From the IMG/VR virus record IMGVR_UViG_3300043451_000043: DNA of 64,000 bases, one strand, 5' to 3'. Position numbers and translations under genes: made by a program. This document shows, piece by piece, positions 20,105-35,403 of the stretch. How positions within the stretch are numbered: the first letter of the stretch is position 1; each line of letters starts with the position of its first letter. A model generated the notes under the pieces. It was not told the DNA's origin, ran no database searches, and worked only from the letters and a program-made list of their open reading frames with translations. The DNA is from a virus.

Positions 20105-20893
20105 GTGGACCCAATCAGTCTTCTCCTCATGGCGCAAAGCGCAGTCGGTGCTATCCGCGCTGGCTGCCAAATGCTGTCGGAAGGCAAAGCTGAGATCAGC
20201 AAGTTCAAAAAGCAAGTTGAGGGCGGCATCGCCGACGCGAAAGCGATCTACAAAGAGGTTACGGGTATCTGGGGTTGGGTCAAATCTTTATTTGGTGCGC
20301 CTCAGAAACCTGTTGCAAGCGTTAAGCATGTTCCCGAAACCAACTTCGGGAACATCGAGCCACCCAAGCCTGTGGCGAAAAAGGCAAATCGCCAACCGGA
20401 ACCAGAGTTAAGTTATGAGGAGTTTCAAGCGCGTGCGGTGCACGACATCTGCGAAAATTTAAAGGTCTACTTTGAGGCCATGAGGCATCTCAAAGCACAT
20501 TGTCGGGAACTCGAAGAAGAGGCTCTCACCACCGAGAAGGTTGCCGATAGTGCGATTGACCGCATTGAAATCCAGTGGCAGATGCAACAGCTTTCTGCCC
20601 AACTCAAGCAGGCCATGATTTATGGCACGCCTAGAGAGCTGGGGCTTGGTGCGATGTATGAGGATTTCCTCATCAAGTACGACGAAATTGTTGAGGCGCA
20701 AGAGGTAGCCCGGGCAGTCAAGGCTAGAAACGAAAGAAACAAGGCATGGCAACGCGAGCTTCTCAAACATCATCGAATCGACCGAACAATAGCGGTAGTG
20801 GCAATTCTGGTAATGGTGGCATGGATGTGGGGCATAGTGCTATCGCTCGCATGGCTCGTGAAGACACCCAATGGTTTATCGTCGCTGTTGTGA
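20105..20893 (+). CDS. hypothetical protein with C-terminal TM segment
   Basis: GTG start. 262 aa, coiled-coil, hydrophobic C-terminus. Confidence 0.4.
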   Translation: MDPISLLLMAQSAVGAIRAGCQMLSEGKAEISKFKKQVEGGIADAKAIYKEVTGIWGWVKSLFGAPQKPVASVKHVPETNFGNIEPPKPVAKKANRQPEPELSYEEFQARAVHDICENLKVYFEAMRHLKAHCRELEEEALTTEKVADSAIDRIEIQWQMQQLSAQLKQAMIYGTPRELGLGAMYEDFLIKYDEIVEAQEVARAVKARNERNKAWQRELLKHHRIDRTIAVVAILVMVAWMWGIVLSLAWLVKTPNGLSSLL

Positions 20894-21075
20894 TCTTGAG
20901 TCTAGTATTGTTCCTAGCCCTGCCAATGTCCTTGCTGGTGTTGGTAGAAACAGAGAAAATGAAGTCGGATGTCCGACACGAGATACGCCAGTTGAAGAAG
21001 CTAAAAGAACAGTTGAAGGAACAGAATGAAAAAGCTATTGTTGTTAAGCCTGCTTCTGACCCTGCTGGGTTGTGA
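20821..21075 (+). CDS. small single-TM protein (holin candidate), alternative frame
   Basis: Start MDVGHS in the 20746-21075 frame. TM FIVAVVILSLVLFLALPMSLLVLV followed by a highly charged C-terminus, just upstream of the lysis genes. Overlaps both neighbours, so uncertain. Confidence 0.3.
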   Translation: MDVGHSAIARMAREDTQWFIVAVVILSLVLFLALPMSLLVLVETEKMKSDVRHEIRQLKKLKEQLKEQNEKAIVVKPASDPAGL

Positions 21076-21244
21076 AGAACGTTACCGCTATCATTGCCAA
21101 GACCCAAAGAATTGGGCGCAGAAGCGATGCCAGCGCCCCGACTGTCAGTTCACCCAAGACTGTCCTGATTACCTCGTAGCACCTATTTTGGAGAAGCCAA
21201 GTGTCCCACAAGCACCAGCATCAACAGCGTCTTCTGACCGCTGA
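21026..21244 (+). CDS. putative lipoprotein
   Basis: MKKLLLLSLLLTLLGC is a canonical signal peptide plus lipobox. Four Cys follow. Confidence 0.4.
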   Translation: MKKLLLLSLLLTLLGCEERYRYHCQDPKNWAQKRCQRPDCQFTQDCPDYLVAPILEKPSVPQAPASTASSDR

Positions 21245-21707
21245 AGAAATTGAGGTCCGCGTCTGGGCCGCAGTCGTCGTTATCGTGACGTTCATCCTCG
21301 CGGGTATCGTCATGTTCATGCTCTACAGCTTGGCCTACGTAACGCAGCCTATCAAGAGTATGGCCCCGATGGACCAAGCCTTTGCCAAGATGCTCAACGA
21401 CATTGTGTTGTTGATCGTCGGCGGTATTGGCGGTGTTATGTCCAAGAAGGGCGTGCAGGCTATTTCAGAACGTATGGCTACCGCACAGGTGCCACCCCCA
21501 CAGCCCCAAGCCGTAGCGCCAAGTCCTAGCCCCGCGCCTACGGCTCAACCGGGCATGTTTGATTTCAACTTCAACGGTTTCAAGAACCCTGAGCTTGACG
21601 AAGAGTGGCGTGCACCCCCTCCACCTACTACCCCACCTGACTACGTGGACCCTGCTGTGGAGGAGATTGCCCATGAGCGAGCCGCAGCCAAGCGAGAGTC
21701 AACATGA
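21201..21707 (+). CDS. membrane protein (holin candidate)
   Basis: Two predicted TM helices (VWAAVVVIVTFILAGIVMF, IVLLIVGGIGGVMS), Pro-rich C-terminal tail, directly upstream of Rz. Confidence 0.35.
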   Translation: MSHKHQHQQRLLTAEEIEVRVWAAVVVIVTFILAGIVMFMLYSLAYVTQPIKSMAPMDQAFAKMLNDIVLLIVGGIGGVMSKKGVQAISERMATAQVPPPQPQAVAPSPSPAPTAQPGMFDFNFNGFKNPELDEEWRAPPPPTTPPDYVDPAVEEIAHERAAAKREST

Positions 21708-22114
21708 TTCCGAACCCCTCGATGATTCTGGGGGCTATCGTTGTCGCCTTAACTGCATATTTCTACGGCCACCATGTAGGCTATGCGCTAAAGGAAGCGG
21801 AGGACGCAGCTCTGATAGCCCAGAAGAACACCGAGATGCGCCAGCACAAGGATGAACAAGATGCCAAAGATGCCAACACCAAGCAAGAGTTTGAAGCTAA
21901 GTTGTCTAGCGTTATTGCTAGCCGCCCAAGGTTGTTCGTCCCCACCAAAGGTGGATGTGCCACCACTCCCGGCAACGATGGTCAAGCGCGAGCCGAACTT
22001 GACGGACAGACTGTTGAAGACCTTATCCGGCTCGTCGCCGAAGGAGACAGGGCCATCATCGAACTCAACTCCTGCATCGACAGGTACGAAGCCGTAAGGA
22101 ACACACTGAAATGA
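21704..22114 (+). CDS. i-spanin (Rz-like)
   Basis: N-terminal TM, charged coiled-coil periplasmic domain, contains an embedded +1 lipoprotein gene, upstream of the endolysin. Confidence 0.55.
   Translation: MIPNPSMILGAIVVALTAYFYGHHVGYALKEAEDAALIAQKNTEMRQHKDEQDAKDANTKQEFEAKLSSVIASRPRLFVPTKGGCATTPGNDGQARAELDGQTVEDLIRLVAEGDRAIIELNSCIDRYEAVRNTLK
21852..22097 (+). CDS. o-spanin (Rz1-like), embedded in the Rz frame
   Basis: 81 aa. Signal peptide with lipobox-like LAAQGC, Pro-rich mature part. Lies entirely inside 21704-22114 in another frame. Confidence 0.5.
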   Translation: MNKMPKMPTPSKSLKLSCLALLLAAQGCSSPPKVDVPPLPATMVKREPNLTDRLLKTLSGSSPKETGPSSNSTPASTGTKP

Positions 22115-22722
22115 TTACCGCATCGCAACTGACGCGTTTACATATCGACCCCGCCATGATGGACCCGCTCAATGCTACGTTCATCAAATTCAAGATCGAC
22201 ACACCCCGCAAGCAAGCTGCCTTCCTTGGCCAGTGCGGGCACGAGTGCGGCAACTTCCGCATCTTCGAAGAGAACCTGAACTACAAAGCCGCCACGCTGA
22301 TGAAGCTGTGGCCCAAGCGTTTCCCCGCCCTAGAAATTGCAAACCAGTATGCAGGCAACCCCAAGAAAATCGCGAATAACGTCTACGCTAACCGCATGGG
22401 CAATCGCGATGAGTCTAGTGGTGATGGCTATCGGTTTAGGGGTCGTGGTGGTATTCAGCTTACTGGCCACGCTAATTACTACCATGCTGGTCAAGCTCTT
22501 GGGGTGGACTTCGTAATGAACCCTGACTTGGTGGCCACGCCGCTGTACGCGATGTTGACTGCTGGGTGGTTCTGGTCTACCCACGGCTGCAATGAATTAG
22601 CCGAAGCTGCCAACTGGGTCGGTCTGACCAAGAAGATCAACGGCGGTACTATAGGTCTTGAGGACCGTGTATCCCATACAGCCCTCGCATTGAATGTGTG
22701 CGGTGAGTGCACTGTTGCCTGA
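22111..22722 (+). CDS. endolysin, glycoside hydrolase family 19-like
   Basis: QCGHECGNF, NRMGN and YRFRGRGGIQLTGHANY motifs typical of GH19 lysozymes. Confidence 0.65.
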   Translation: MITASQLTRLHIDPAMMDPLNATFIKFKIDTPRKQAAFLGQCGHECGNFRIFEENLNYKAATLMKLWPKRFPALEIANQYAGNPKKIANNVYANRMGNRDESSGDGYRFRGRGGIQLTGHANYYHAGQALGVDFVMNPDLVATPLYAMLTAGWFWSTHGCNELAEAANWVGLTKKINGGTIGLEDRVSHTALALNVCGECTVA

Positions 22723-22749: not shown

Positions 22750-24936
22750 ATGCCTTTACAGAAACTACAATTCCGCCCCGGTGTCAACCGTGAAGGCACA
22801 ACCCTCGCTAACGAAGGCGGCTGGTTTGATTGCGACAAGATTCGCTTTCGTTCTGGATACCCTGAAAAAATCGGTGGGTGGGTTCGTGATACCGGTGTAG
22901 CACAGGCAACCCTACAACCCCCAGTAGGTTCATATTGGGGTGTCGCACGTTCAATGTGGAATTGGATTACCTTGGGCGGCCAGAATCTTTTGGCCGTCGG
23001 TACCAACCTCAAATACTACATTCAGAACGGCCCTAACGGCTACTTCTACGACATCACACCTATACGCGTAACCCATGCAGGGATTACAAGTGCGTTCACA
23101 ACCGTTAACGGTTCTACTACTGTGACGGTTAACGACCCCGGCCACGGCGCGGTGAACAACGATTTCGTCACCATTTCTGCTGTCGGCGGTGCGGTCAACG
23201 GTATACCCGCGGCCAGCTTGAACCAAGAATTCCAGATCACGTATCTGAATTCGAACCAATACAACATCGTCGTGAACGCCCCCGCCACGTCTTCTGGCAC
23301 AGGCGGTACTGCAACGTTCACGTACCAAATCAACAGTGGTTTGGACGTTTACACATACGCAACTGGATGGGGTGCAGGTACTTGGGGCGGCGTTGTCACA
23401 GGTTCAAAAGTAACCACACTTAACACCACCGTCAATAGCAGCGCCACATCTATCGTGCTGACCTCGGCCACAGGCTTTACAACAACAGGTACGATCGTCA
23501 TCGACGCAGAATCTATTACATATTCTGGCGTCTCGACAAACACTTTGACAGGTTGCACTCGCGGTGCAAACGGCACTACTGCGGCCGCACATACCGCTGG
23601 TGCTACCGTGACGCAAGTCACTTCTTCATTCTCTGGGTGGGGCACTGCCGCTACATCTGGCGCGGTTGGCCAGCAGTTGCGTTTGTGGAGCCAATCTAAC
23701 TACGGGCAAGATTTGATCTTCAACCCCCGTGGTGGTGCGATGTACTACTGGGCGGTAAACGCAAACGTCAACACGTTTGACCGTGGCACCATCATGAAGG
23801 CTGGGGACTACATCCCCGGTTCTGGCAGCGTTGTCTATGATTCAACCACCCCGTCGATCGCCAACTTTGTCATGGTGTCAGACGCATCTCGATTTGTGAT
23901 AGCTATGGGTACCAACGACCCATCTGGCGCACTGTTCTCTGCAACACAAGACCCGTTGTTAATTCGTTGGTCGCAACAAGAACAGTTCTACACATGGACT
24001 CCCGCTGCGACAAACCAAGCAGGTGACTACCGTCTAAGTAGTGGCTCCGAGATCGTTGGCGCTTTGCAGACCCGACAAGAAATTTTGGTTTGGACCGATG
24101 CCGCGCTGTATTCCATGCAGTACCTTGGCCCACCTTATGTGTGGGGCTTCCAGATCATGGGTAGCAACCTATCCATCGCGGGACCAAACGCAATGGCTAC
24201 GGCGAACAACGTGACTTACTGGATGGGTTCAGATAAGTTTTACATGTACTCAGGCCGCGTAGAGACACTACCGTGCACTTTGCGTCAGTATGTGTTTGAC
24301 GACATCAACATGGACCAGTCTTACCAATTCTTTGCCAGCACCAATGAGGGCTACAACGAGATTTGGTGGTTCTATTGTTCGGCTGGTTCGGATGTTATCG
24401 ACAAGTATGTTGTGTTCAATCATCTTGAACGTACTTGGTACTACGGCACTATGGCCCGCACATACTGGCTCGACAGCCCCTTGCGTGCAGAACCAATGTC
24501 TGCCGGATATAACGGTCAGCTCATCTACCAAGAGACAGGTAACGACGATGGTACGACTACACCTGCTTCGCCTATTGAGGCTTACGTGCAGTCCTCTGAC
24601 TTTGATATTGGTGACGGCTACAACTTTGGCTTTGTTTGGCGGATTATTCCCGACGTGACGTTCGACGGTTCGAACGTAAACAACCCCGCAGTGACCTTCA
24701 CAGTGCGCCCACGTCAAAACCCCGGTACAAACTACGGAAGCACTGACACACCAACTGTAGCCAGCAAGCAGAACTACATTGGACAGCAGACTTACAACGT
24801 GCAGCAGTTCACCGAGTATGCGTATGTGCGGATTCGTGGGCGTCAGATGGCGTTCAAGATCAGTTCAGATGGCCTAGGTGTTGCGTGGCAGTTGGGTATG
24901 CCGCGCCTAGACGTTAAACCAGACGGACGGAGATAA
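22750..24936 (+). CDS. large virion structural protein
   Basis: 728 aa, G/T-rich beta composition, in the late operon after the lysis genes. Confidence 0.45.
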   Translation: MPLQKLQFRPGVNREGTTLANEGGWFDCDKIRFRSGYPEKIGGWVRDTGVAQATLQPPVGSYWGVARSMWNWITLGGQNLLAVGTNLKYYIQNGPNGYFYDITPIRVTHAGITSAFTTVNGSTTVTVNDPGHGAVNNDFVTISAVGGAVNGIPAASLNQEFQITYLNSNQYNIVVNAPATSSGTGGTATFTYQINSGLDVYTYATGWGAGTWGGVVTGSKVTTLNTTVNSSATSIVLTSATGFTTTGTIVIDAESITYSGVSTNTLTGCTRGANGTTAAAHTAGATVTQVTSSFSGWGTAATSGAVGQQLRLWSQSNYGQDLIFNPRGGAMYYWAVNANVNTFDRGTIMKAGDYIPGSGSVVYDSTTPSIANFVMVSDASRFVIAMGTNDPSGALFSATQDPLLIRWSQQEQFYTWTPAATNQAGDYRLSSGSEIVGALQTRQEILVWTDAALYSMQYLGPPYVWGFQIMGSNLSIAGPNAMATANNVTYWMGSDKFYMYSGRVETLPCTLRQYVFDDINMDQSYQFFASTNEGYNEIWWFYCSAGSDVIDKYVVFNHLERTWYYGTMARTYWLDSPLRAEPMSAGYNGQLIYQETGNDDGTTTPASPIEAYVQSSDFDIGDGYNFGFVWRIIPDVTFDGSNVNNPAVTFTVRPRQNPGTNYGSTDTPTVASKQNYIGQQTYNVQQFTEYAYVRIRGRQMAFKISSDGLGVAWQLGMPRLDVKPDGRR

Positions 24937-24938
24937 GC

Positions 24939-25253
24939 ATGGCGTCAAAGAATTCAATCGCCCCTCGACTACCCGCTGCACCTGTTGAATACAGCCAGCG
25001 GTTCATGGACGACCTGACAAACATCTTACGTTTGTATTTCACACAGTTGGACAACCCTTCGCCTATGCTGGCGGCGTCCCAAGGTGTAGGTACTGCTAGC
25101 GTAATTTCTGCATTAACTTTTGCACAACCTGACCCAGCTAACCCCGGGCAGTTTAAAATCAGCTTGCCAACACAGGCTGACCTTGCTAACCTCCGTTCTG
25201 GGGACGTCTACGTAGACACTTCGGCCAGCAACGTATTGAAAGTAAAAGTATGA
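24939..25253 (+). CDS. hypothetical virion-module protein
   Basis: 104-aa ORF. Confidence 0.4.
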   Translation: MASKNSIAPRLPAAPVEYSQRFMDDLTNILRLYFTQLDNPSPMLAASQGVGTASVISALTFAQPDPANPGQFKISLPTQADLANLRSGDVYVDTSASNVLKVKV

Positions 25254-26578
25254 GCCTTCACATTGCCGCAAAACATTTAGCCGCCCAAGGCCGTGGCCCC
25301 GACACAACCCTCGTCCACATGGCCCCACGCGAAGTGGCTGGCCTGCAAGCGATTGCAAAAGCCCACGGTGGTTCGCTGACGATCAACCCCGAAACCGGTC
25401 TGGCGGAAGCTGGATTCCTGTCACGCATCCTGCCTACTTTGGCGGGTGCTGCGTTGGCAGCTACCGGTGTCGGCGCTCCTATGGCGGCGTTGATGATTGG
25501 TGGAGGTACTGCGCTGGCTAAGGGTGACTTGAAAGCGGGCTTGATGGCTGGCTTGGGCGCATACGGCGGCGCTGGTTTAACAAGTGGCGCGGCCACCTTG
25601 GGTGCAGAGCAGGCTGGCACAGCCGCTGGCCAAGAAGCTGGATTGAAAGCCGGTGCGGAATCTTTGGGTACAACCCCCGAAGTTATGGCTACCCAGCAGG
25701 GGTCGCAACAAGCGTTGACAACTTCGTACCCAGACATGAGCGGCAACATCACCCCAGATACGTCATTCATCGACCCCACCAAGGCCCAACAATACAGCAA
25801 CGCGTACAGCGAGGCGTACAAGCCCGCGTTTGACGCCAACAACGTCAAGAACTTCGACAACACGATGTCGGGCTTCAAGGCCGCAGGTAACGACTTTGGC
25901 GCTTACGCAAAAGCTTCTGGTGGGTACGGTGGTTTGGCGCAATCTGGTCTGGCTGCTATGGCCCCTGCTATGGCTGACAAGCAGCCGGTCGTCCCCGGCG
26001 TGGAGCATTACAACGGCCCCTTGAGCCGTTACAGCATGTCGGAAAACTACAAGCCATACGAGGCCCAACAGCCCAACCCATACTACCAAGCGCAGTATCA
26101 AACCTACGCAGGTGGTGGTACGGTCGAGCAGATGTCTAACGCAAACGCAGTTGGCCAGAACACTGGGTACCCTCAAGCGGATATTCAAGGCCACGCGTAC
26201 GCAACGCCTTGGCAAACCCCCGTGTCTGAAAACATGGTCACCGACACCGCGGACACAGGTGTTAACCGTATGACCGGTGAAATGAACTTTGCCGCTGGCG
26301 GCCACTTGGGGGGCTACTCTGACGGCGGCCGTATGTTGAAAGGCCCCGGCGATGGCATGTCTGATTCGATTCCTGCAAAGATTGGTGCGAAGCAGCCTGC
26401 GCGTCTTGCTGATGGTGAGTTTGTTGTCCCTGCTGACGTTGTGTCTCACCTAGGTAATGGCTCTTCGGATGCTGGCGCAAAGCAGCTATACAAAATGATG
26501 GACCGCATCCGTGCGGCCCGCACTGGCAAAAAGAAACAAGCTCCGCAAGTCAACCCCGGTAAGGCCATGCCTGCATGA
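25250..26578 (+). CDS. internal virion protein candidate (G/A-rich)
   Basis: 442 aa, ATGA overlap. G/A-rich N-terminus with a predicted TM-like stretch. Confidence 0.45.
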   Translation: MSLHIAAKHLAAQGRGPDTTLVHMAPREVAGLQAIAKAHGGSLTINPETGLAEAGFLSRILPTLAGAALAATGVGAPMAALMIGGGTALAKGDLKAGLMAGLGAYGGAGLTSGAATLGAEQAGTAAGQEAGLKAGAESLGTTPEVMATQQGSQQALTTSYPDMSGNITPDTSFIDPTKAQQYSNAYSEAYKPAFDANNVKNFDNTMSGFKAAGNDFGAYAKASGGYGGLAQSGLAAMAPAMADKQPVVPGVEHYNGPLSRYSMSENYKPYEAQQPNPYYQAQYQTYAGGGTVEQMSNANAVGQNTGYPQADIQGHAYATPWQTPVSENMVTDTADTGVNRMTGEMNFAAGGHLGGYSDGGRMLKGPGDGMSDSIPAKIGAKQPARLADGEFVVPADVVSHLGNGSSDAGAKQLYKMMDRIRAARTGKKKQAPQVNPGKAMPA

Positions 26579-27036
26579 ACTACACCATAACGCTAGAGAA
26601 GTTCACTCAGAACTACAGGGAGCTTGAGCCCCTGTACCGTCAGCACTACGCTGAAATGACTGAACGCCTAGCGGCTGAGGGTGTTTTTTATAGCCCATAC
26701 GCTCCACGGTTGGATAAGTATGGTGAGGCTTGCGAGGGTGGGTGGCTTTTGAATTTTGTGGTCCGTTGTGACGGTGTTGCGGTTGGGTATAGCAATGTGT
26801 ACGTGACCAACGACATGCACAACAATGACCTGATTTGTCAAGAAGACACGGTGTTCGTTCTGAAAGAGCACCGCAACGGAATCGGTAAGAAGCTGGTTCA
26901 GTGTGTAGTTGAGGAGCTGCGATCACGTGGTGTGAAGCGGCTGATGGTGTCGGCAATGACCGACTTACGTGTGGCCAAACTCTGGAAGCGAATGGGCTTT
27001 AAAGAAATGGCGACACAAATGATTTATGAATTTTGA
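26575..27036 (+). CDS. GNAT family N-acetyltransferase
   Basis: VFVLKEHRNGIGKKLVQ matches the GNAT acetyl-CoA binding motif A (R/Q-x-x-G-x-G/A). 153 aa, the typical GNAT size. Confidence 0.6.
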   Translation: MNYTITLEKFTQNYRELEPLYRQHYAEMTERLAAEGVFYSPYAPRLDKYGEACEGGWLLNFVVRCDGVAVGYSNVYVTNDMHNNDLICQEDTVFVLKEHRNGIGKKLVQCVVEELRSRGVKRLMVSAMTDLRVAKLWKRMGFKEMATQMIYEF

Positions 27037-27044
27037 GGTGACCT

Positions 27045-28184
27045 ATGTGTGGTTCAAGTAGCCCAGCAGCTCCATCGTCGTCAACGACAAACACGTCGAA
27101 CATCCCCGAATACGCACGCCCGTACGTAGAGACAATGCTGGGTGCTACCCAGAAACAGTTGTTCGATACGAAGCAGACCGGCGGGGTGTATGACCCTAAC
27201 ACCGGCGTAACTTCGCCTACCTCTACCGAGATCACCGGCATGAAAGGCTATACGCCTTACAGTACCGATATGAACAACTATTTTGCTGGGTTCAACCCCA
27301 TGCAAGAACAAGCGTTCACCGGCGCGGCCAACCTCGGCCCTACACAACAAACTGCTGACGCTTCCACAATGGCTGGCGCTGCGGGTTTGAACGCGCTGAA
27401 CACCAACTACAACGGTATGCAAGCCACGTCACAAGACTTTGGCAACAACGCCGCTGCGCGATACATGAGCCCATACGCTATGCAAGCGTTGGCCCCTCAG
27501 TTACAAGAGCAAGCCCGTGCGTCTCAAATTGCTGGTCAGCAACAACAAGCTGAGGCTGTCGGTCGTGGCGCGTTCGGCGGTAGCCGTGACGCTTTGATGC
27601 GTGCGGAGCGCGAGCGCAATCTGGGTATCCAACAAGGTAACACGATCAGCCAAGGCTTGAACACCGCGTACAACAACGCGATGCAACAGTTCAACGCAGA
27701 CCAAGCCCGTGCAATGCAAGCGCAGACCGCCAACATTGGCCAGCAACAGTTCGGTGCCAATCTCGGTATGCAGGGTATCAACGCCGCCAATCAGGCCGCC
27801 AACACCTTGGGCACTTTGGGCCAGCAACAGTTTGGCCAAGAACAAGCCGCCATTGGCTTGCAGAACCAGCTCGGCTCTCAACAACAGGCGCTTGAGCAGA
27901 ACAAGATCAACCAAGCCATCCAGAACTACGCTACCCAACAGCAATGGGGTATGCAGCAGCTCTCCAACATGAACGCTATGTTGCGTGGCTTGCCCTTGCA
28001 GACTACATCGACACAGACCTACCAAGCTGCACCATCCACCGTATCTCAGATCGCTGGTCTTGGCTTGGCTGGTGCTGGCCTCGCTTCGAAGACAGCCGCT
28101 AAAGGTGGCTCGACCAAAGACATTAAGAAACGCCCATCCGCTGGCTTGGCCGCAGGCGCGTTGAACAAAGTAATGAAAGGCTAA
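27045..28184 (+). CDS. Q-rich internal virion protein candidate
   Basis: 379 aa, very Q/A/N-rich and helical. Confidence 0.45.
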   Translation: MCGSSSPAAPSSSTTNTSNIPEYARPYVETMLGATQKQLFDTKQTGGVYDPNTGVTSPTSTEITGMKGYTPYSTDMNNYFAGFNPMQEQAFTGAANLGPTQQTADASTMAGAAGLNALNTNYNGMQATSQDFGNNAAARYMSPYAMQALAPQLQEQARASQIAGQQQQAEAVGRGAFGGSRDALMRAERERNLGIQQGNTISQGLNTAYNNAMQQFNADQARAMQAQTANIGQQQFGANLGMQGINAANQAANTLGTLGQQQFGQEQAAIGLQNQLGSQQQALEQNKINQAIQNYATQQQWGMQQLSNMNAMLRGLPLQTTSTQTYQAAPSTVSQIAGLGLAGAGLASKTAAKGGSTKDIKKRPSAGLAAGALNKVMKG

Positions 28185-28186
28185 TC

Positions 28187-29287
28187 ATGCTGGGCAAATC
28201 AACTTCCAACATGTCGCTTGAAGAACTGCAAAAAGCAGTGATGGGCGCTAACCCCGCCATTGAGCCTTACCAAGCATTGGCTGCCATCGAGAAGATGGTC
28301 AAGGCCGAGAAAGCCAAGACCGCGCAGTTGGCTCAACAGCCGCGCCCTCAAGGTATGGTGGCCCAACGCACAATGGCCGAAGCTGCTGCACTACGTAACC
28401 CCTATATGGCGGCTGGTCTGGGCGCTGCCCCCGTCGCTTCTCCTGTGACCACCCCGATGGGTGAACAGGCTGCCCCTGTTGGTATGGCAGGCGGGGGCAT
28501 GGTTGCGTTCGCCAAAGGCGGTATCACACCCTACGAGTCTGGTTTTGAAGCCTTGTCTGATGATGAGCGCATCGCAGCCTTGCAGAAATACAAAGAAGCT
28601 CTTGGCGCGAACAACGCCGAACTGCTCTCTCCGTTAGAAGCCCAACAAGCCAAGTACGCACAAGAAGCTGAGAAGACCAAGAAGGGTGGTTTGAGTGACG
28701 CACTCCTCGCCGCAGGTCTGGGCATGATGGCTGGCAAATCCCAGTACGCCATGCAGAACATCGGTGAAGGCGGCCTAAAAGGTCTGGCCCAGTACCAAGA
28801 GTCACAGAAGGCCGCGCAAATGGCGCAAGACAAGATGTTGCAGTCTCAAGCCGATATGGCCAAGTCACGCATCGCCCTCGAAAAAGGCGACGAGACAACT
28901 GCTGCCGCACTGCAAAACCAAGCACGCCAAGAAGCACAGGCGGCTGGCCAATTCAAGCTACAAGGTCAATACTACGCTGGCTCCAACGCCGCGCAGATGG
29001 CTGCGGCTCAAAACCGTGGTTTGGCTGGTGGGTACGGCGCGGACAAGCAACGTTTGGCTGAACTCAAACTCATGTTGACCAGCAAGCAAGCAGAACTCAA
29101 AGACAAATCCATGATGCTACCAAAGAACGCCACACGTAAGGCGCAGTTGCAGGGTGAGGTGGACGAGTTGAACAAAGTGATTGCTTCGATGGCTGGGGTC
29201 GGTACAATGGCACCAAGTACCCCCGGCGCAGGCGCTGCTGGCGGTCAGAACGTATATAACTTCAACGACATTACGAAGCCTCAGTAA
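28187..29287 (+). CDS. A/Q-rich internal virion protein candidate
   Basis: 366-aa ORF, helical composition. Confidence 0.45.
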   Translation: MLGKSTSNMSLEELQKAVMGANPAIEPYQALAAIEKMVKAEKAKTAQLAQQPRPQGMVAQRTMAEAAALRNPYMAAGLGAAPVASPVTTPMGEQAAPVGMAGGGMVAFAKGGITPYESGFEALSDDERIAALQKYKEALGANNAELLSPLEAQQAKYAQEAEKTKKGGLSDALLAAGLGMMAGKSQYAMQNIGEGGLKGLAQYQESQKAAQMAQDKMLQSQADMAKSRIALEKGDETTAAALQNQARQEAQAAGQFKLQGQYYAGSNAAQMAAAQNRGLAGGYGADKQRLAELKLMLTSKQAELKDKSMMLPKNATRKAQLQGEVDELNKVIASMAGVGTMAPSTPGAGAAGGQNVYNFNDITKPQ

Positions 29288-29288
29288 C

Positions 29289-32200
29289 ATGGCCTACTCA
29301 ATTCGCCTCCCAGATGGTTCGCTGGTTCAGAACATCCCTGACAACATTCCACCACACGAGGCGAAGGCTCAAATCCTGCAATCCCGACCTGAGTTCGGCG
29401 ACACCAAACGTTCATGGGGCGAAGCTGCCGGTGACATCGGCGCAAGTGCGTTATCTGGTTTGGGCTCGTTGGCCCAGCTCCCCGGCCAAGCCTATGGGCT
29501 GGCCACAGGTGACTTCGATACTGGCATCCTGCAAGGAGCCAAGAAGTTGTCCAAGTTTGGTGAAAGCCTCAAGTCGGAAGGCTTGCAGGCACGCGAAGCA
29601 AAGCGCGACATCAAAGTAGCTGAGGCCGAGAAGAACGGCCAGCTCAGTGCATTCGGCACGTCGTTTGCCGAGACAGTCAAAGACCCCGCACTGTTCACAT
29701 CGTTCCTTGCGGAACAACTCCCACAACTGTTTGTGCCCGGCTCCGCCGCTATGGGTGCTGGCCGCATGGCGTTTGCCAAGGCTGTTGCCTCTGGCGCTGG
29801 TGAGAAAGCTGCTACCGCTGCCGCAGTTGCCGCCGGTACGGCCGCAGCCAAAGGTGCTGGCGCAGTTCAGCAAGGTGCCGATGTTGGCGCTCAAGCCTAC
29901 GAAGACCTCTACAAACGCCTTGTCAAAGACGGCAAGTCCAAAGAAGAAGCCGCAGCCCAAGCTATTGGTTTAGCGCGTGCCACCGGCGCAAGTGCAGCGG
30001 CTATTTCTTGGTTAGCGCAGGGCTTGCCCGGCGCACAGGCACTTGAGAAGGCGCTCGCAGGTGGCGCTACGAAGTCTGGCATTGCCAAGGCGTTTGCCGC
30101 AGGTGCAGCCGGTGAGGGCGTCAGCGAGATGGTCGAAGAAGGTGGTGGTAAGTTCTCGCAGAACTTAGCCATGCGCGACATTGACCCAACCCAAGCCTTG
30201 ATGCAAGGTGTCGGTGCTACTGCGGGTCAAGCGGCCGTTGGCGGTGTTGGTATGGGCGGTGCCGCAGGTGCTATCTCCAGTGGTCGCGGTCGCCCCGATG
30301 TGGCGCAGGTAGCCAAAGCTGCCAACGTACCGGCTAGCGATTTAGAGAAAGCCAATAACGAACGCATCCTTCGCCAGCAACAAGAACAACTGAGCGCCGC
30401 ACAAGGCAAAGAAGCCCGTGCCGGTGAGAAACTTCTCGCAGCAGAAGACGCAGATTTGGCTGCCCAAGCAGCCGCAGACAGCAAGGCACGGGGCGAAGCA
30501 CTCGCTGCTCAAGAAGCAGAACTCCGCGCAAAGCGCGAGGCTGACCTGCAAGCAGCGTTCCCTTCCGACTACCAAGATGTGATGGCTGGTGCCAACGCAT
30601 ACGCCGAACTGTTCAAAGAGAAGCAGTCGCTTGAGGGTGAGCGCAAGACCAAAGAAGTCCGCGCTCGCATCGCGCAGCTCGACGCCCGTATGCTTGAGAT
30701 TACGGAAGCTGACACCCGCGTGGCTTCTGCTGTGGCACAACTGCAAAAAGATCAAGAGAAGCTGGCAAAAGCCGCTGGCTTCCCCGCCAAGAAGTCTGCC
30801 AAGGCTATGGAGAACGCGCCCGCGCAGATGGAAATGCGTGAAGCGTTGGATGTGCCCACCCAACCACAGACCGATTTGTTTGGTAACCCACTACAAGTCG
30901 CGCCTGACGAAGCCACACCGACCGCAGGCGACTTGCTTGACGGCGTGCCCATGACCACGCAGAACCTCGAAGACGCAGGGCTTGGTCCGACACGCAAAGA
31001 GATGGTTGCCGCAGGACAGCGCAATCTGTTCCAACAACGCCAGCCACGCGGCGGGAAAACCTCCACGCCAACACAAGCTGACACCGGTTTAGAACAAGCC
31101 GTCACAACAGAAGAGCAACCAGTTACCGAGCCCAAGAAGGTTGAGAAGCCTGTCGCGCTCACACCTGAGACTGTGCCCACCACCGTCACACCCGACGTGC
31201 TGGGTGCCTTGGGAATTGGCCGCACAGCCACGATTCGCAAAGCCGACCACGGCATCATGGGCAAAGACATCGCCGACCCAGCACAAGCTGGGGAAGTCAA
31301 GTCCATTCTTGAAGCCTACAAAGAAGGCCGTAGTGCCCCCATCCAGCAGAAGATTGATGCCTACCTCGCACGACCAGAGTTCCAAGCCGCCGCGCCTACC
31401 GCGCCGACTACAACGGGAGAAACAAATGCTCGACCAGTTAAGCAAAAAGGACGTGGAGCTAGCGTTCCAGCACCTGTCGAAACCGATACAGGAAGCGCCG
31501 CCCCCGCAGTTGCAGAATCTGAACGAGCTGGAATGGTTCCTGTTGGACAGGATGTTGGCGCAGATACTGGCCGAAAAGCAAAGTCAGCCGCTCCAGTAAA
31601 CATGTTTGAGCAGTTGGTGCAGAAGGAAAAAGCGCCAGAAGAAGGCACTACACCCGACACCACGCTCAAGTCACTCCCCGACGATGTTGAGGCAGAAGTC
31701 CCCGTCCATCTCCGCCCGTGGGGTGGCGTACAGCTATGGCGTCCAGAATCTCAAGGCGCGGAAGCAATGACCGACGTGCAGGCCGCCCTCCAAGAGAAAG
31801 CACGAGCGGGTGATGTACGTGGTGCCTTGCAGGCTATCCTTGACGCGCCAGCAGGTGTGTACAACGAACTCGACAAGCTGGTGGCAAAACGTCTGCTGGC
31901 TGCTAGCTCGCTACCCACGCTGGAAGTTGTGGCCGCCAAAGAAGGTTCACCTGACGGTACGTACGATGCCGTGAACGACCACGTGCAGTTGACTGAAGGT
32001 TCGGTCGGCAGTCACACACTCTTGCATGAGTTGGTCCACGGGTTCGTCCACCGCATGATTGCCCTGCACGAAGGCGGTATCTCCAAGAACCTGCATATCG
32101 GTAACCTGCGCCAGCTCTACGACTTTATCGCCAAGCAACATCCTGAATTGGTGAAGACCTACGGCATGACAAACCTGAGCGAGTTCGCCTCTGAGGTCAT

Positions 32201-35096
32201 GTCAAACAAGGCGTTCCAGAAAGAACTGCAAAAGATTACCTACCGCCGCGAGAACGCTTTCACCGCGTTTGCCAAATCCGTGCTGCGCATCTTGGGCATC
32301 TCCCCCACCGACCAGAACACCGCACTGGGCTCTGCCCTGATCTCGGTTGAAGCTGTCATGGGTGAAGGCCGCCGCCTGCAAGAATCCGCCAAGGGCACGA
32401 ACGTCGAAGGCTCTCTCGACAATATCGCCAACGTGTGGGGTCAGGGCACACTGGATGCCATCCGCCAGATTCAAGATGCTGTCGGCTCCGATACCCCCGA
32501 ACAAGTTGGTGGGGTAATGGAACAAGCGTTGAGCGGTATCAAGCGTGCGCGTGAGAAGACAGGTATCTTGGCGGCGTTCCGCCAAGCCGCCGTGAACAAG
32601 TACGCCACCGTGGAATCCAAGGTTTCGCAGATGTTCTCGCAAGGCGTGCGCGATGCGTTCGGCAACCTGAACCCGATGTTGCTGGTGCGCCAAGCTGACG
32701 ACAGTGCCAAGACCATCATGGACTTCTTCCGCGCTGGTGGTATCCGAATCAACAAAGATGGTTTGGTAGAAACCTTCGACACCGACGCATCCGCAACACA
32801 GGCGCTCAAGGAAATCCAAGCGTTTGCAGAAGCCGAAGGCATGGACTTCGACAAGGCGAAGAAGGACATCTCCACCGTGTTGGAAGGCCACCGCCTGCAC
32901 TCAATCCGCGAGTTCAACAACCAGCTTGAGCAGTCAGCCAAGATACTGGAAGCCCAAGGCAAGAACAAGCAAGCCGATGCAGAGCGTGCCCGCAAGATTC
33001 GTCTGCACATGACGAACCAAGAGATCGACACGCTCGAAGAAATCTACCAATCTACCCCCCGCATCCAGAAGGTGCAGGAAGTGTTCAACGCAACCCGCGG
33101 TCAAGCGATTGACTTGATGGTGGCCAGCGGCCGCATCACCAAAGAGCGCGGTGAAGATTGGAAATCGAACTCTGCCTACGTGCCGTTTGACCGTGTGCTG
33201 GAAGACATTGGCCCCAACCCTATGCCACGTGGCAAGGGCTTGGCCGTACTCGGCAGCGACCCAAAGATCAAAGGCTCGATGGAGAAGCCAATCAAAAACG
33301 CCATCGACTCGTACATGAACACCCTCGGCTGGATGGTCGAAGATGCCATGAAGAACCGCGCTGCGGTCGAGTTGCTGGAAACTATGGCCGGTGTTGGTTA
33401 CGCTGAGAAGCACGCCAAACCTAGCATGGCCAAGAATGAAAATCTCGTGGTGCCCCGCCTATTCCAAAACGGCGAGCCTGTGTACTTCGAGGTGCAGAAC
33501 GAGTTCGATATGGCTGCGTTCCAGCAGGCCCCAGAGATGACCAACTGGCTCATCAAGGGTCTGGCCGCCACCTCACGATTCATGCGCACCAGCGTCACGG
33601 CAATGCCACCATTTGCGGTCAAGCAGGTGCTGGAAGACGCGACCCGTGCTGCCATGTATTCCGGCGTGGAGCGCCCACTTGTTGTGGCAATGAAGACTTT
33701 GTACAACCTGCCCCGCACCTTCTATGGTGAGTGGACCGGCAAGAAGTCTCCTATGGTCAAGCGCATGGAAGAGTTGGGCATCATCGGTGACTTCGACTTC
33801 AACATCTACCAGCCAACCACCGAGATCGAAAAAGAAATCGGCGCAAAGAAACGTGGCACCGCGGGCACGATCTTCCACAGGCTCGAACAGTTCACCAAGG
33901 CATCTGACTTGGCCGCACGCTTGGCTGTGTACGAAGAGACGATGCGCGACACCAACGGCGACGAAGTGCTGGCCCAGACCCGCGCACGCGAACTGATTAA
34001 CTTCAACCGCCGTGGTTCGTCAGGTACCATGAACACGCTGTCCCGCGTGATTCCCTTCTTCAACGCGTACGCCCAAGGCTTGGATGTACTGTACCGTTCA
34101 GCGTCTGGTATCGACTCGACCAGCTCGATCGAACGTGGTGCAGCACGTCGTTTGTTCTGGAGCCGTGTTGGCATGATGACTGCCTTCGGCATGATGTACG
34201 CCTTGGCCATGTCGGGCGACGACGGCTACGAGAACGCAACGGATGACGTGCGTGACAACAACTGGATTCTGCCCGGTGGCTTCAAACTGCCTGTGCCAAA
34301 AGAATTGGGCTTCATCTTCAAGGTCATCCCAGAGCGTGTCGTCGAATACGCCAAGCGTTCTGGTACCCCAGAAGAGCAGAGCGTAGCTGAAGCGGTCACT
34401 GGCGTGCTCAAGTCGGCGCTGTCCACCTACGGTATGCCAAACACTGTGCCGTCCACCATCCGCCCTGTGCTGGAGAACATGACCAACTATTCGTTCTTCT
34501 TGCAGCGTGAGTTGGAATCCACCTCGATGCAGGGTAAGGAGCCCGGCCAGCGTTACACATCCAGCACATCTGAGTTGGCCAAGGCGATCGGTGAAGCCAC
34601 TAACATGTCGCCAATCAAGATCGACAACCTCATCCGCGGCTGGTTCGGTATGGTTGGTTCGACTACCCTGCTGGCTACCGACGCGATGTTGAACCCAACA
34701 CGCCCTGACCGCCCGATCTACCAGATGCCGTTTGCCAGCATCTTCTTGTACGACACGATTGGTGGCCGCGCCAAGAATGAGTTCTACGACGTTCAGAACA
34801 AGGCAGCGCAGGCTGAGAACACCTTCAACGATCTGCTGGAGAAGGACCCTGCCAAGGCTGAGAAATACCTTGAGAAAAACGAGGCTCTGATTAACGCAGC
34901 ACCGGTGCTGAACTCATCTCTCGAAGAGCTGTCCAACTTGCGCCGATTGCGCCTAATGGTGGAGCAGGGTACCGACGAAGAACTCGGCATGGATGGCGCG
35001 GAACGCCGCAAGTTCATCGACGAGATTCGCCAAAACGAAAACGAGTCCCTGCGCTACGTGCGCGAGTTGAAAAAGCAAATCAACGACGCGCAATAA
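29289..35096 (+). CDS. giant virion protein (~1935 aa) with zincin-like HExxH motif
   Basis: ATG at 29289 right after the previous stop. N-terminal ~900 aa A/E/K/Q-rich coiled coil. HELVH at 32025-32039. Last gene of the + block. Confidence 0.55.
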   Translation: MAYSIRLPDGSLVQNIPDNIPPHEAKAQILQSRPEFGDTKRSWGEAAGDIGASALSGLGSLAQLPGQAYGLATGDFDTGILQGAKKLSKFGESLKSEGLQAREAKRDIKVAEAEKNGQLSAFGTSFAETVKDPALFTSFLAEQLPQLFVPGSAAMGAGRMAFAKAVASGAGEKAATAAAVAAGTAAAKGAGAVQQGADVGAQAYEDLYKRLVKDGKSKEEAAAQAIGLARATGASAAAISWLAQGLPGAQALEKALAGGATKSGIAKAFAAGAAGEGVSEMVEEGGGKFSQNLAMRDIDPTQALMQGVGATAGQAAVGGVGMGGAAGAISSGRGRPDVAQVAKAANVPASDLEKANNERILRQQQEQLSAAQGKEARAGEKLLAAEDADLAAQAAADSKARGEALAAQEAELRAKREADLQAAFPSDYQDVMAGANAYAELFKEKQSLEGERKTKEVRARIAQLDARMLEITEADTRVASAVAQLQKDQEKLAKAAGFPAKKSAKAMENAPAQMEMREALDVPTQPQTDLFGNPLQVAPDEATPTAGDLLDGVPMTTQNLEDAGLGPTRKEMVAAGQRNLFQQRQPRGGKTSTPTQADTGLEQAVTTEEQPVTEPKKVEKPVALTPETVPTTVTPDVLGALGIGRTATIRKADHGIMGKDIADPAQAGEVKSILEAYKEGRSAPIQQKIDAYLARPEFQAAAPTAPTTTGETNARPVKQKGRGASVPAPVETDTGSAAPAVAESERAGMVPVGQDVGADTGRKAKSAAPVNMFEQLVQKEKAPEEGTTPDTTLKSLPDDVEAEVPVHLRPWGGVQLWRPESQGAEAMTDVQAALQEKARAGDVRGALQAILDAPAGVYNELDKLVAKRLLAASSLPTLEVVAAKEGSPDGTYDAVNDHVQLTEGSVGSHTLLHELVHGFVHRMIALHEGGISKNLHIGNLRQLYDFIAKQHPELVKTYGMTNLSEFASEVMSNKAFQKELQKITYRRENAFTAFAKSVLRILGISPTDQNTALGSALISVEAVMGEGRRLQESAKGTNVEGSLDNIANVWGQGTLDAIRQIQDAVGSDTPEQVGGVMEQALSGIKRAREKTGILAAFRQAAVNKYATVESKVSQMFSQGVRDAFGNLNPMLLVRQADDSAKTIMDFFRAGGIRINKDGLVETFDTDASATQALKEIQAFAEAEGMDFDKAKKDISTVLEGHRLHSIREFNNQLEQSAKILEAQGKNKQADAERARKIRLHMTNQEIDTLEEIYQSTPRIQKVQEVFNATRGQAIDLMVASGRITKERGEDWKSNSAYVPFDRVLEDIGPNPMPRGKGLAVLGSDPKIKGSMEKPIKNAIDSYMNTLGWMVEDAMKNRAAVELLETMAGVGYAEKHAKPSMAKNENLVVPRLFQNGEPVYFEVQNEFDMAAFQQAPEMTNWLIKGLAATSRFMRTSVTAMPPFAVKQVLEDATRAAMYSGVERPLVVAMKTLYNLPRTFYGEWTGKKSPMVKRMEELGIIGDFDFNIYQPTTEIEKEIGAKKRGTAGTIFHRLEQFTKASDLAARLAVYEETMRDTNGDEVLAQTRARELINFNRRGSSGTMNTLSRVIPFFNAYAQGLDVLYRSASGIDSTSSIERGAARRLFWSRVGMMTAFGMMYALAMSGDDGYENATDDVRDNNWILPGGFKLPVPKELGFIFKVIPERVVEYAKRSGTPEEQSVAEAVTGVLKSALSTYGMPNTVPSTIRPVLENMTNYSFFLQRELESTSMQGKEPGQRYTSSTSELAKAIGEATNMSPIKIDNLIRGWFGMVGSTTLLATDAMLNPTRPDRPIYQMPFASIFLYDTIGGRAKNEFYDVQNKAAQAENTFNDLLEKDPAKAEKYLEKNEALINAAPVLNSSLEELSNLRRLRLMVEQGTDEELGMDGAERRKFIDEIRQNENESLRYVRELKKQINDAQ

Positions 35097-35126
35097 AAAA
35101 TCCCCTCGGTGATGAGCCGAGGGGAG
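35094..35126 (-). terminator. hairpin terminator at the convergence point
   Basis: TCCCCTCGG-TGATGAGC-CGAGGGGA stem with an A6 run on the + side, which reads as T-run after the stem on the - strand. Confidence 0.55.
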
Positions 35127-35175: not shown

Positions 35176-35403
35176 TTACGCCGTGCGCCAGATGCGAACC
35201 CCCCACATGCCATTCTCGACACGCGCTTGGTACTTGGTCTTGTAGCCAAACTGACGGGCCCGCATCCGAATAGACGTGGCCACGCTGCGGTCGTCAAGGC
35301 AGGGGATGAAGAAGGACGAGCCCACTATGAACTCGCCCCACTCGATCTTTATTTGGACGCCCAGTACCTCAAGCGGCTTGGTCGTCTTCATTGGCCTTGG
35401 CAA
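35176..35403 (-). CDS. small hypothetical protein
   Basis: 75-aa ORF between the primase stop and the terminator. Overlaps the primase 3' end. Confidence 0.3.
   Translation of the reverse strand: MPRPMKTTKPLEVLGVQIKIEWGEFIVGSSFFIPCLDDRSVATSIRMRARQFGYKTKYQARVENGMWGVRIWRTA

Follow-up and report, generated by a model that had tools for sequence, protein, structure and literature searches.

The subject of this analysis is a small gene for a GNAT-fold acyltransferase, located at 26575..27036 on the plus strand of a virus genome from the IMG/VR collection (record IMGVR_UViG_3300043451_000043; the 64,000 nucleotides (nt) analysed are referred to as the window). The window represents most of a podovirus-like phage genome of about 66 kb, related contigs being 66,049-68,219 bp long. 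On the plus strand, genes for TerL, the portal, the major capsid protein, an SU10-type adaptor and the fibres are followed by a lysis cassette with a GH19 endolysin and then by a late gene string. This string encodes, in order, a virion protein of 728 amino acids (aa), proteins of 104 aa and 442 aa, the GNAT, a 379-aa ejection protein resembling IVP-B, a 366-aa protein and a 1935-aa LPD38 polyvalent protein. Neighbouring genes of the string either overlap by 4 nt or lie no more than 8 nt apart, and the same gene order was found in metagenomic relatives.

A GNAT-fold acyltransferase gene in the late string

The open reading frame (ORF) starts with ATG, encodes 153 aa and carries FVLKEHRNGIGKKLVQ at residues 94-109. 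The protein matched the Pfam family Acetyltransf_1 with E=2.5e-10 (41.1 bits versus a curated cut-off of 20.7) and scored 36.7 for Acetyltransf_7 (cut-off 27), 25.7 for Acetyltransf_10 (23.6) and 24.1 for FR47 (22.1). Acetyltransf_1 was likewise matched by 79 of 82 GNAT homologues, and in PHROG the acetyltransferase families 1249 and 3810 were matched by the window protein. An AlphaFold model built on the 82 diverse homologues reached a predicted local distance difference test score (pLDDT) of 97.1 and a predicted template modelling score (pTM) of 0.90. The top Foldseek matches of this model in the PDB were all GNATs (E about 1e-10, template modelling (TM) scores 0.7-0.76; about 0.75 for 7n1l). 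A collection of 5.8 billion metagenomic proteins contained 523 homologues, and at 50% clustering 586 were found. The ratio of non-synonymous to synonymous substitution (dN/dS) in the reading frame had a median of 0.07 (range 0.02-0.15, 29 pairs of close relatives), indicating strong purifying selection. Because of the Pfam and PHROG matches, the confident fold model, the strong purifying selection and the 523 homologues, 26575..27036 is a real gene and no chance ORF. An earlier reading of the same DNA from its letters alone (the original prediction) had called the product a GNAT and quoted its motif A; the ORF is as described there, and profile search and fold model both confirm the call.

The GNAT is a stand-alone protein and not a domain inside a giant protein, the LPD38 polyvalent gene being separate and two ORFs downstream. 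Between the window and the clade of the related locus L002, no other protein of the module was conserved as well as the GNAT (74% identity; 40-64% for its neighbours). Within the pyrophosphate-binding loop (motif A), R100 was invariant in the 82 homologues, which share 23-68% identity, while G102 was kept in 70 (85%) and G104 in 64 (78%), with alanine at the latter position in a further 8 (10%). Moreover, D91, H82, R64 and three N-terminal acidic residues were conserved. With a cofactor loop pattern as expected of an active site, the enzyme looks catalytically intact, and acyl-CoA-dependent catalysis is apparently to be predicted from the fold and the loop.

The closest sequence-profile matches in the PDB were Naa30 (7l1k, E=1e-10), an uncharacterised acetyltransferase, AAC(3)-XI and RimI-like proteins. 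Naa30 and RimI also ranked among the best matches by fold. RimI and Naa30/Naa50 are N-alpha-acetyltransferases that act on protein N-termini and, like the window GNAT, are single-domain proteins of the same size, but the likeness is at generic GNAT level only (15-20% identity). The substrate class is unreadable from the PDB matches, because aminoglycoside and sugar acetyltransferases score nearly as well as Naa30/RimI. Among the close structural neighbours were AAC(3), AAC(6'), GNA1 and, as polyamine acetyltransferases, DpA and SSAT2 (the latter listed as diamine acetyltransferase 2). These neighbours, together with the conserved acidic residues on helix 1, which suit cationic substrates, and a patchy distribution like that of an accessory gene, would be compatible with an enzyme for small molecules (polyamines packaged along with the DNA, compounds like aminoglycosides, or amino sugars), encoded by an auxiliary or moron gene that stands in the late operon by chance; in part of the literature such GNATs are regarded as metabolic genes. 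We consider this improbable, since the position 5' of an IVP-B-like gene recurs across lineages with 24-36% GNAT identity and different layouts, and since the gene is translationally coupled upstream and tightly linked downstream.

The original prediction had further proposed that the enzyme is injected with the DNA and acetylates host targets, for example aminoacyl-tRNA in the manner of the AtaT/TacT toxins. This proposal found no support. AtaT, TacT and KacT share with the window GNAT the superfamily and a similar length, but they have a cognate antitoxin, whereas the operon context here is structural, strictly so in every relative examined. The 60 best sequence-profile matches in the PDB contained no AtaT, TacT or KacT entry, and neither did the 50 best matches by fold. 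No antitoxin-like gene (RHH/DUF1778) lies beside the GNAT: according to Pfam and PHROG neither the 442-aa nor the 379-aa neighbour has an antitoxin domain, and the flanking genes have no Pfam match of any kind. In addition, the protein occupying the corresponding position in T7, gp13, is reported to be absent from virions, as described below. The idea of a type II toxin-antitoxin GNAT acetylating aminoacyl-tRNA was rejected for want of an antitoxin and of specific similarity, and we regard it as scarcely credible.

One homologue (P0228 / L201 1270-2277) was fused to an Asp/Asn beta-hydroxylase domain (PF05118), an enzyme type that modifies proteins, and adjoins a T7-type portal gene. Two other apparent domain fusions were set aside: P0162, which seems to be a frameshifted or chimeric gene call, was left out of the analysis, and P0249 is a generic tandem GNAT. 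A gene for a 2OG-Fe(II) oxygenase was also seen in the structural block of the close relatives of the window phage (L002 2799-3356). Because the N-termini of the ejection proteins are proline-rich, protein hydroxylation may be a further modification in these modules.

The IVP-A position and its occupants

The position of the window gene, a small gene directly 5' of an IVP-B-like ejection gene and 3' of tail genes, is that of internal virion protein A (IVP-A). Acetyltransferase matches have been reported for T7 IVP-A (gp13) and for its syntenic counterparts in phiRIO-1-like phages, and epsilon15 and P22 have standard IVP-A homologues at the same position (Hardies et al. 2016, PMC4819975). The T7 protein is needed for morphogenesis and does not remain part of virions, the name 'internal virion protein A' being a misnomer (PMC4819975, citing Kemp 2005). 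Mass spectrometry of virions of the T7-like phage phiPsa17 found gp6.7, 7.3, 8-12 and 14-17; gp13 was not among the reported proteins (PMC4517105).

In our analysis, the model of a 97%-identical relative of T7 gp13 (pLDDT 93.6) matched nothing but GNATs in its 50 top PDB hits, the first being RimI (E=3e-5). The gp13 of epsilon15 is annotated as 'acetyltransferase' in the public record. Both proteins resemble the window GNAT in that they are small (138-154 aa), encoded directly 5' of the first ejection protein (gp14) and of GNAT fold, and in both phages the downstream ejection protein begins with Met-Cys, as in the window clade. As for differences, the T7 gp13 gene directly follows that of tubular tail protein B, whereas in the window the 104-aa and 442-aa genes stand between the 728-aa virion protein and the GNAT. 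Furthermore, R-x-x-G-x-G is kept in the window family but not in the family of T7 gp13. The phenotype of gp13 and its absence from virions come from the literature.

P22 gp14 (PF11039; 'virion stability factor' or 'head assembly protein') occupies the same slot, after the tail needle gp26 and before gp7, gp20 and gp16, and a 29%-identical member of the window GNAT family sits in exactly this P22-type arrangement. Unlike the window 379-aa protein, P22 gp7 begins ML..., loses a 20-residue propeptide and has no cysteine at position 2 (Cys2). The best viral structural matches to the window GNAT were the GNATs of VpV262 (Q8LT55, TM 0.88) and Roseobacter phage CRP-4. The GNATs of VpV262-like phages/Zobellviridae, CRP-4 and Pseudomonas phage PfAn1 gave weak but significant sequence matches (24-28% identity) and have the same position between tail and internal virion genes. 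In PfAn1 a 'putative acetyltransferase' is followed by internal virion proteins and a transglycosylase, Vibrio phage 275E43-1 (Zobellviridae) has a GNAT in the same ejection-gene setting, and vibriophage records of the Zobellviridae list an 'acyl-CoA N-acyltransferase' or 'GNAT domain protein' adjoining tubular tail B. Unlike the window protein, several of these slot GNATs have degenerate cofactor loops. In the VpV262-like phages, CRP-4 and PfAn1, a hydrophobic helix (MAVTTTAV..., MVAAAVG...) stands at the start of the downstream protein, in place of Met-Cys and a Pro/Ser-rich tether.

In distant members of the GNAT family (24-36% identity), the genes directly 3' of the GNAT encode IVP-B-like proteins, which are small and either Gln/Ala/Gly-rich or hydrophobic, and large ejection proteins. 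P0161, P0187, P0222 and P0173 are such cases, and in P0199 a P22 gp10-like gene and a 410-aa gene precede the GNAT, with genes for 206, 552 and 720 aa after it. The settings of the distant members include a Bcep22-like block with a PAPS reductase and blocks ending in proteins of >3,000 aa, and in some layouts the GNAT and a small hydrophobic protein precede the portal. A cultured close phage was not found: an 18-kb piece of the module had no megablast match in 50,697 phage records, and tblastn of the GNAT gave only four weak matches. The window TerL is about 45% identical to those of DSL-LC04, Pelagibacter phages HTVC023P/027P and Synechococcus phage MinM2/Planktothrix phage Pag-Yong1. A 39-kb record filed under Inoviridae (PQ492659.1, Limnohabitans phage DC33; L009) has the pair of GNAT and IVP-B-like gene as in podoviruses, and this filing is probably a classification error.

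By position and fold the window protein belongs to the IVP-A-slot group; by sequence it does not. It had no Pfam match to PF11090 (Phage_T7_Gp13) at E<=0.1 and none to PF11039 (DUF2824, P22 gp14), and single-sequence hhalign comparisons with gp13 and gp14 gave no signal. Degenerate cofactor loops were found in P22 gp14 (R-G-F-S-K-E), epsilon15 gp13, PfAn1, Vibrio phage 275E43-1 and the loci L031 and L118. Since several slot proteins have such loops, the function of the slot can survive loss of the canonical motif, and the classical IVP-A may be a pseudo-enzyme or a user of another donor. The degenerate loops in PfAn1, 275E43-1, L031 and L118, the GNAT fold of T7 and epsilon15 gp13 without a conserved glycine-rich CoA loop, and the Pfam name of T7 gp13 ('probable scaffold protein') would all agree with a non-catalytic assembly chaperone or scaffold, which uses the GNAT fold as a binding platform to escort ejection proteins into the procapsid. 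We judge such a role quite unlikely for the window protein, in whose family R100 is invariant, the loop glycines are kept in 78-85% of the 82 homologues, D91, H82, R64 and the acidic residues are retained, and omega is about 0.07.

The Met-Cys start of the ejection protein and the proposed role of the GNAT

The gene downstream of the GNAT starts with Met-Cys in every locus of the window clade (for example MCGSSSPAAP, MCSPTQPTQP, MCESSAPSAP and MCSSSEPQPS). The same start was found in six deep GNAT branches (L022 MCQQSAPPPPDY, L023 MCAPSAPAAPDY, L029 MCQDSGTAPD, L031 MCKPNPPPPPNY, L116 MCADVPDPPDF and L119 MCNFGQSGQ), the residues after Cys2 varying freely up to a conserved IPEYA-PY motif. T7 gp14 begins MCW in 78 of 80 T7-like IMG/VR loci, and epsilon15 gp14, a member of the PF24072 T7_gp14 family, begins MCSP. 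Where no GNAT/IVP-A gene lies upstream, Cys2 was absent from SP6 gp34 (MAIG), from phiKMV ORF35 (MAFW) and from MinM2 MM2_23 (MSGTTQ), a clear homologue of the window ejection protein, and it occurred in none of 65 GNAT-less IMG/VR loci. As background, cysteine stood at position 2 in 33 of 638 ORFs of our own sample, Met-Cys ejection genes included; we estimate the rate without these genes at about 2%. A start-codon artefact was considered and rejected, 27045 being the first possible start in the frame and having a Shine-Dalgarno sequence. For the same reason the 379-aa protein has no signal peptide. Its C-G-S-S-S start with the Pro/Ser tether presumably resembles the N-terminus of a mature lipoprotein.

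Three side observations concern other starts and neighbours of ejection proteins. GNAT-less homologues (IMG/VR loci L124-L199) have N-terminal extensions of 25-35 residues of a few recurring types (MSILRSKHSGW..., MFKLTDILNFF..., ...KLLADGGV...), which end in a poly-Gly run before the IPEYA motif and bring to mind the propeptide that host OpdA removes from P22 gp7. At L026 (636-1265) and L028 (1297-2187) the downstream protein begins with Met-Gly and a polybasic stretch (MGIFGGKGKSK, MGKPKAPKSPDP), superficially resembling eukaryotic N-myristoylation signals. Finally, at L114 and one other of the 80 T7-like loci, the place after gp13 at which gp14 would be expected is taken by a small Cys-rich ORF (MKCCSKCKVEKP..., 128 aa).

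The GNAT fold, the intact cofactor loop, the purifying selection, the fixed position 5' of an IVP-B-like gene in many lineages and the GNAT fold of gp13 form the basis of the explanation that we prefer, namely a late modification of co-expressed ejection proteins by an active GNAT in the producer cell. We consider this quite possible, although we hold it tentatively. The GNAT, encoded in the IVP-A slot of a podovirus ejection-protein operon, would be made late together with the ejection proteins and would act on one or more of them in the producing cell. This modification would make the particles competent for ejection, and the GNAT itself would most likely be neither a stable virion component nor an injected toxin. 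The likeliest single target would be the protein encoded at 27045-28184, whose N-terminal cysteine would be acetylated or acylated after removal of the methionine. We infer from the above basis the action on ejection proteins, the non-packaging of the enzyme and the identities of acceptor residue and acyl donor. As an alternative to host targets, the original prediction had named the lysine-rich virion proteins of the phage; the direction of this idea, action on the phage's own virion proteins, is favoured by the slot, the precedent and the protein-acetyltransferase-like matches.

The Met-Cys pattern, the RimI/Naa30-type neighbours and the GNAT-hydroxylase fusion together suggest an N-terminal acetylation or acylation of IVP-B. 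In the searchable library, no publication was found that deals with T7 gp14 being acylated or modified at its N-terminus, or with the enzymology of gp13. In its general form, the proposal would make the GNAT-fold proteins of the IVP-A slot, T7 gp13 as well as the window protein, dedicated N-terminal modifiers of IVP-B (T7 gp14), acetylating or fatty-acylating its N-terminal cysteine after methionine removal; this is doubtful and offered as a speculation. It would be similarly speculative that IVP-B, the first-ejected and outer-membrane-inserting protein, is thereby given a lipoprotein-like N-terminus needed for ejection or membrane insertion.

Several observations weigh against a modification of ejection proteins by the GNAT. 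In a survey of 80 IMG/VR loci with an IVP-B homologue, in which start codons were chosen automatically and GNATs were detected within about 1.4 kb upstream on the same strand, only about 15 had a GNAT directly upstream, which makes the GNAT an accessory of such modules. It is missing from the nearest isolates, MinM2 and Pag-Yong1. Alignment of the GNAT family by hhalign gave a probability of 0.6% against the gp13 alignment and of 0.6% against the P22 gp14 alignment; both negatives are weak, because these alignments are shallow (Neff, the effective number of sequences, about 2 for each). Since no profile-profile relationship was found, the tie of the window GNAT to gp13 and gp14 is one of fold and synteny only. 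In the gp13 family (n=32) the loop glycine was present in 5 and the arginine in 17 members, R-x-x-G-x-G not being conserved, and the T7 precedent may therefore be non-catalytic. Several GNAT-bearing lineages lack Cys2 in the downstream protein, which begins with MG and a polybasic stretch, MS, MA/MV and a hydrophobic stretch, or MNYSRRQLY..., or is P22 gp7 with its cleaved propeptide. Overall, in many GNAT lineages the downstream protein either carries Gly, Ser, Ala or Val as its second residue or has a long extra stretch at the N-terminus. A correlation of the intact loop with Cys2 was sought and no clean relation emerged: the loop is degenerate in L031, which has Cys2, and canonical in L028, which has Gly2. 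The Cys2 counts are moreover not independent, because ancestry is shared within each family. Finally, the module delivers enzymes, as its polyvalent neighbour shows, which keeps the idea of an injected effector alive.

Such an effector would be packaged in the capsid, expelled into the next host and there acetylate a host target (translation machinery, defence proteins or envelope components). Late expression within the ejection block would suit a protein with a task at the outset of the next infection, and the intact loop and strong selection indicate that catalysis matters. In addition, the block encodes the LPD38 polyvalent protein, relatives of which have an ART-PolyVal ADP-ribosyltransferase domain (L005) or the annotation RelA/SpoT (MinM2). 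On the other hand, T7 gp13 was reported absent from virions (PMC4819975) and its homologue was undetected in phiPsa17 particles (PMC4517105). The window GNAT has no specific similarity to known toxin GNATs, and the GNAT is always paired with an IVP-B-like gene, even in other layouts such as those beside the portal. Because this pairing persists across module layouts, it suggests a partner inside the phage. We regard a packaged effector as unlikely, and keep it in consideration because the polyvalent neighbour makes enzyme delivery by the module plausible.

Neighbouring genes and meaning for the ejection module

The coordinates of the late string and of its surroundings are given in Table 1. 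No promoter- or terminator-like site above chance was found on the plus strand inside 22750-35096 by terminator and promoter scans, and the string ends in a strong hairpin (35101-35125).

Table 1. Positions of the genes and sequence features in and around the late gene string of the window
Feature	Coordinates	Strand	Basis
Virion structural protein, 728 aa, first gene of the late string	22750..24936	+	PHROG 3287, E=1.4e-58
104-aa ORF, 4-nt overlap with the next gene	24939..25253	+	ORF list
Ala/Gly-rich protein, 442 aa, conserved C-terminal motif (GPGDGMSDSIPA...ADGEFVVPADVVSHLGNGSSDAG)	25250..26578	+	ORF list, composition
GNAT-fold acyl-CoA N-acyltransferase, 153 aa	26575..27036	+	Pfam, PHROG, AlphaFold model, fold search
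R100-N-G102-I-G104-K codons, pyrophosphate-binding loop Q/R-x-x-G-x-G/A (motif A)	26872..26889	+	Alignment of homologues
GNAT stop inside Shine-Dalgarno-like GAGGTGA, then next start codon; junction TGAGGTGACCTATG	27034..27047	+	DNA reading
Ejection protein (IVP-B-like), 379 aa, Gln/Ala/Gly-rich	27045..28184	+	PHROG 4287 'DNA ejection protein', E=6e-13
Presumed further ejection/internal protein, 366 aa, Ala/Gly/Gln-rich	28187..29287	+	ORF list, composition, synteny
Giant polyvalent protein, 1935 aa, last gene of the string	29289..35096	+	Pfam LPD38, E=5e-32
GC-rich hairpin then T-run, between the convergent late string and primase/helicase gene	35101..35125	.	Terminator scan
Primase/helicase gene	35369-38209	-	Converges on the late string

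The 728-aa virion protein was 56% identical to a syntenic 777-aa gene product of L002. The 104-aa ORF had no match in Pfam or PHROG and partially matched a syntenic 219-aa gene of L002. The 442-aa protein contains 17.0% alanine and 14.3% glycine, in agreement with the G/A-rich upstream neighbour described in the original prediction. The stop of its ORF overlaps the GNAT start (ATGA), and this overlap is kept in relatives. Of the ATGA overlaps predicted on both sides of the GNAT, this upstream one held. The downstream junction is an 8-nt spacer, the next ORF starting at 27045, 8 nt past the GNAT stop and with no overlap. A spacer of 7-11 nt with GAGG/AAGG is kept in the close relatives L002-L025, except in L023/L024 (16 and 19 nt). 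Because the Shine-Dalgarno-like GAGGTGA overlaps the GNAT stop, the GNAT and the downstream gene are still tightly linked.

The C-terminus of the 442-aa protein (window 26330-26578; also L120 5828-6712) shows the motif GPGDGMSDxIPA...ADGE[FY]V[VI]PADVVSxxGNGS. This motif recurs in the MinM2 (Synechococcus phage) protein MM2_22, which has the annotation 'calcium-binding protein' and directly precedes the ejection-protein homologue, with no GNAT there. The motif may be a capsid- or portal-targeting element. A further observation concerns the lysis cassette (window 20105-22722; membrane proteins and a GH19-type endolysin, PHROG 181), which lies between the tail-fibre genes and the ejection string and not at the end of the late region.

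Downstream of the GNAT, the Q-rich candidates and the setting among ejection protein genes were both borne out, the 379-aa neighbour (Q 14.0%, A 15.6%) matching the PHROG 'DNA ejection protein' family and the 366-aa protein containing 19.7% alanine, 10.4% glycine and 9.8% glutamine. The 379-aa protein has an M-C-G-S-S-S-P... start (Cys2 codon at 27048-27050), an IPEYARPY motif and a C-terminal Gly/Ala hydrophobic segment, and its C-terminus resembles that of P22 gp7. The 366-aa protein had no Pfam or PHROG family match. In the 1935-aa protein the LPD38 domain was located at aa 1644-1816 (about 34218-34736) and a zincin-like HELVH (HExxH) motif at nt 32025-32039; in PHROG the protein matched DarB-like and virion RNA polymerase families in their N-terminal regions. 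Considering the different domains in its relatives, this gene family looks like a case of effector-domain swapping in a delivered giant protein.

The slot itself is already known from T7 gp13 and functionally unsolved; what is new is an abundant clade of apparently catalytically intact occupants. T7 gp13 and its positional counterparts represent a long-standing gap in the otherwise well resolved ejection machinery of podoviruses, being needed for infectious particles and not part of them. The intact and strongly conserved loop of the window clade is an argument that the slot can serve a chemical function and need not be limited to chaperoning, and the Met-Cys start of the adjacent ejection protein provides a concrete acceptor candidate. 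If the ordinary reading holds, the value of the finding would lie in annotation, such genes being described as 'IVP-A-slot acetyltransferases of the ejection module' and not as 'auxiliary metabolic genes' or toxins. If N-terminal modification of IVP-B were true, it would explain how gp13 can be essential and yet absent from particles, and it would give T7 gp13 a function.

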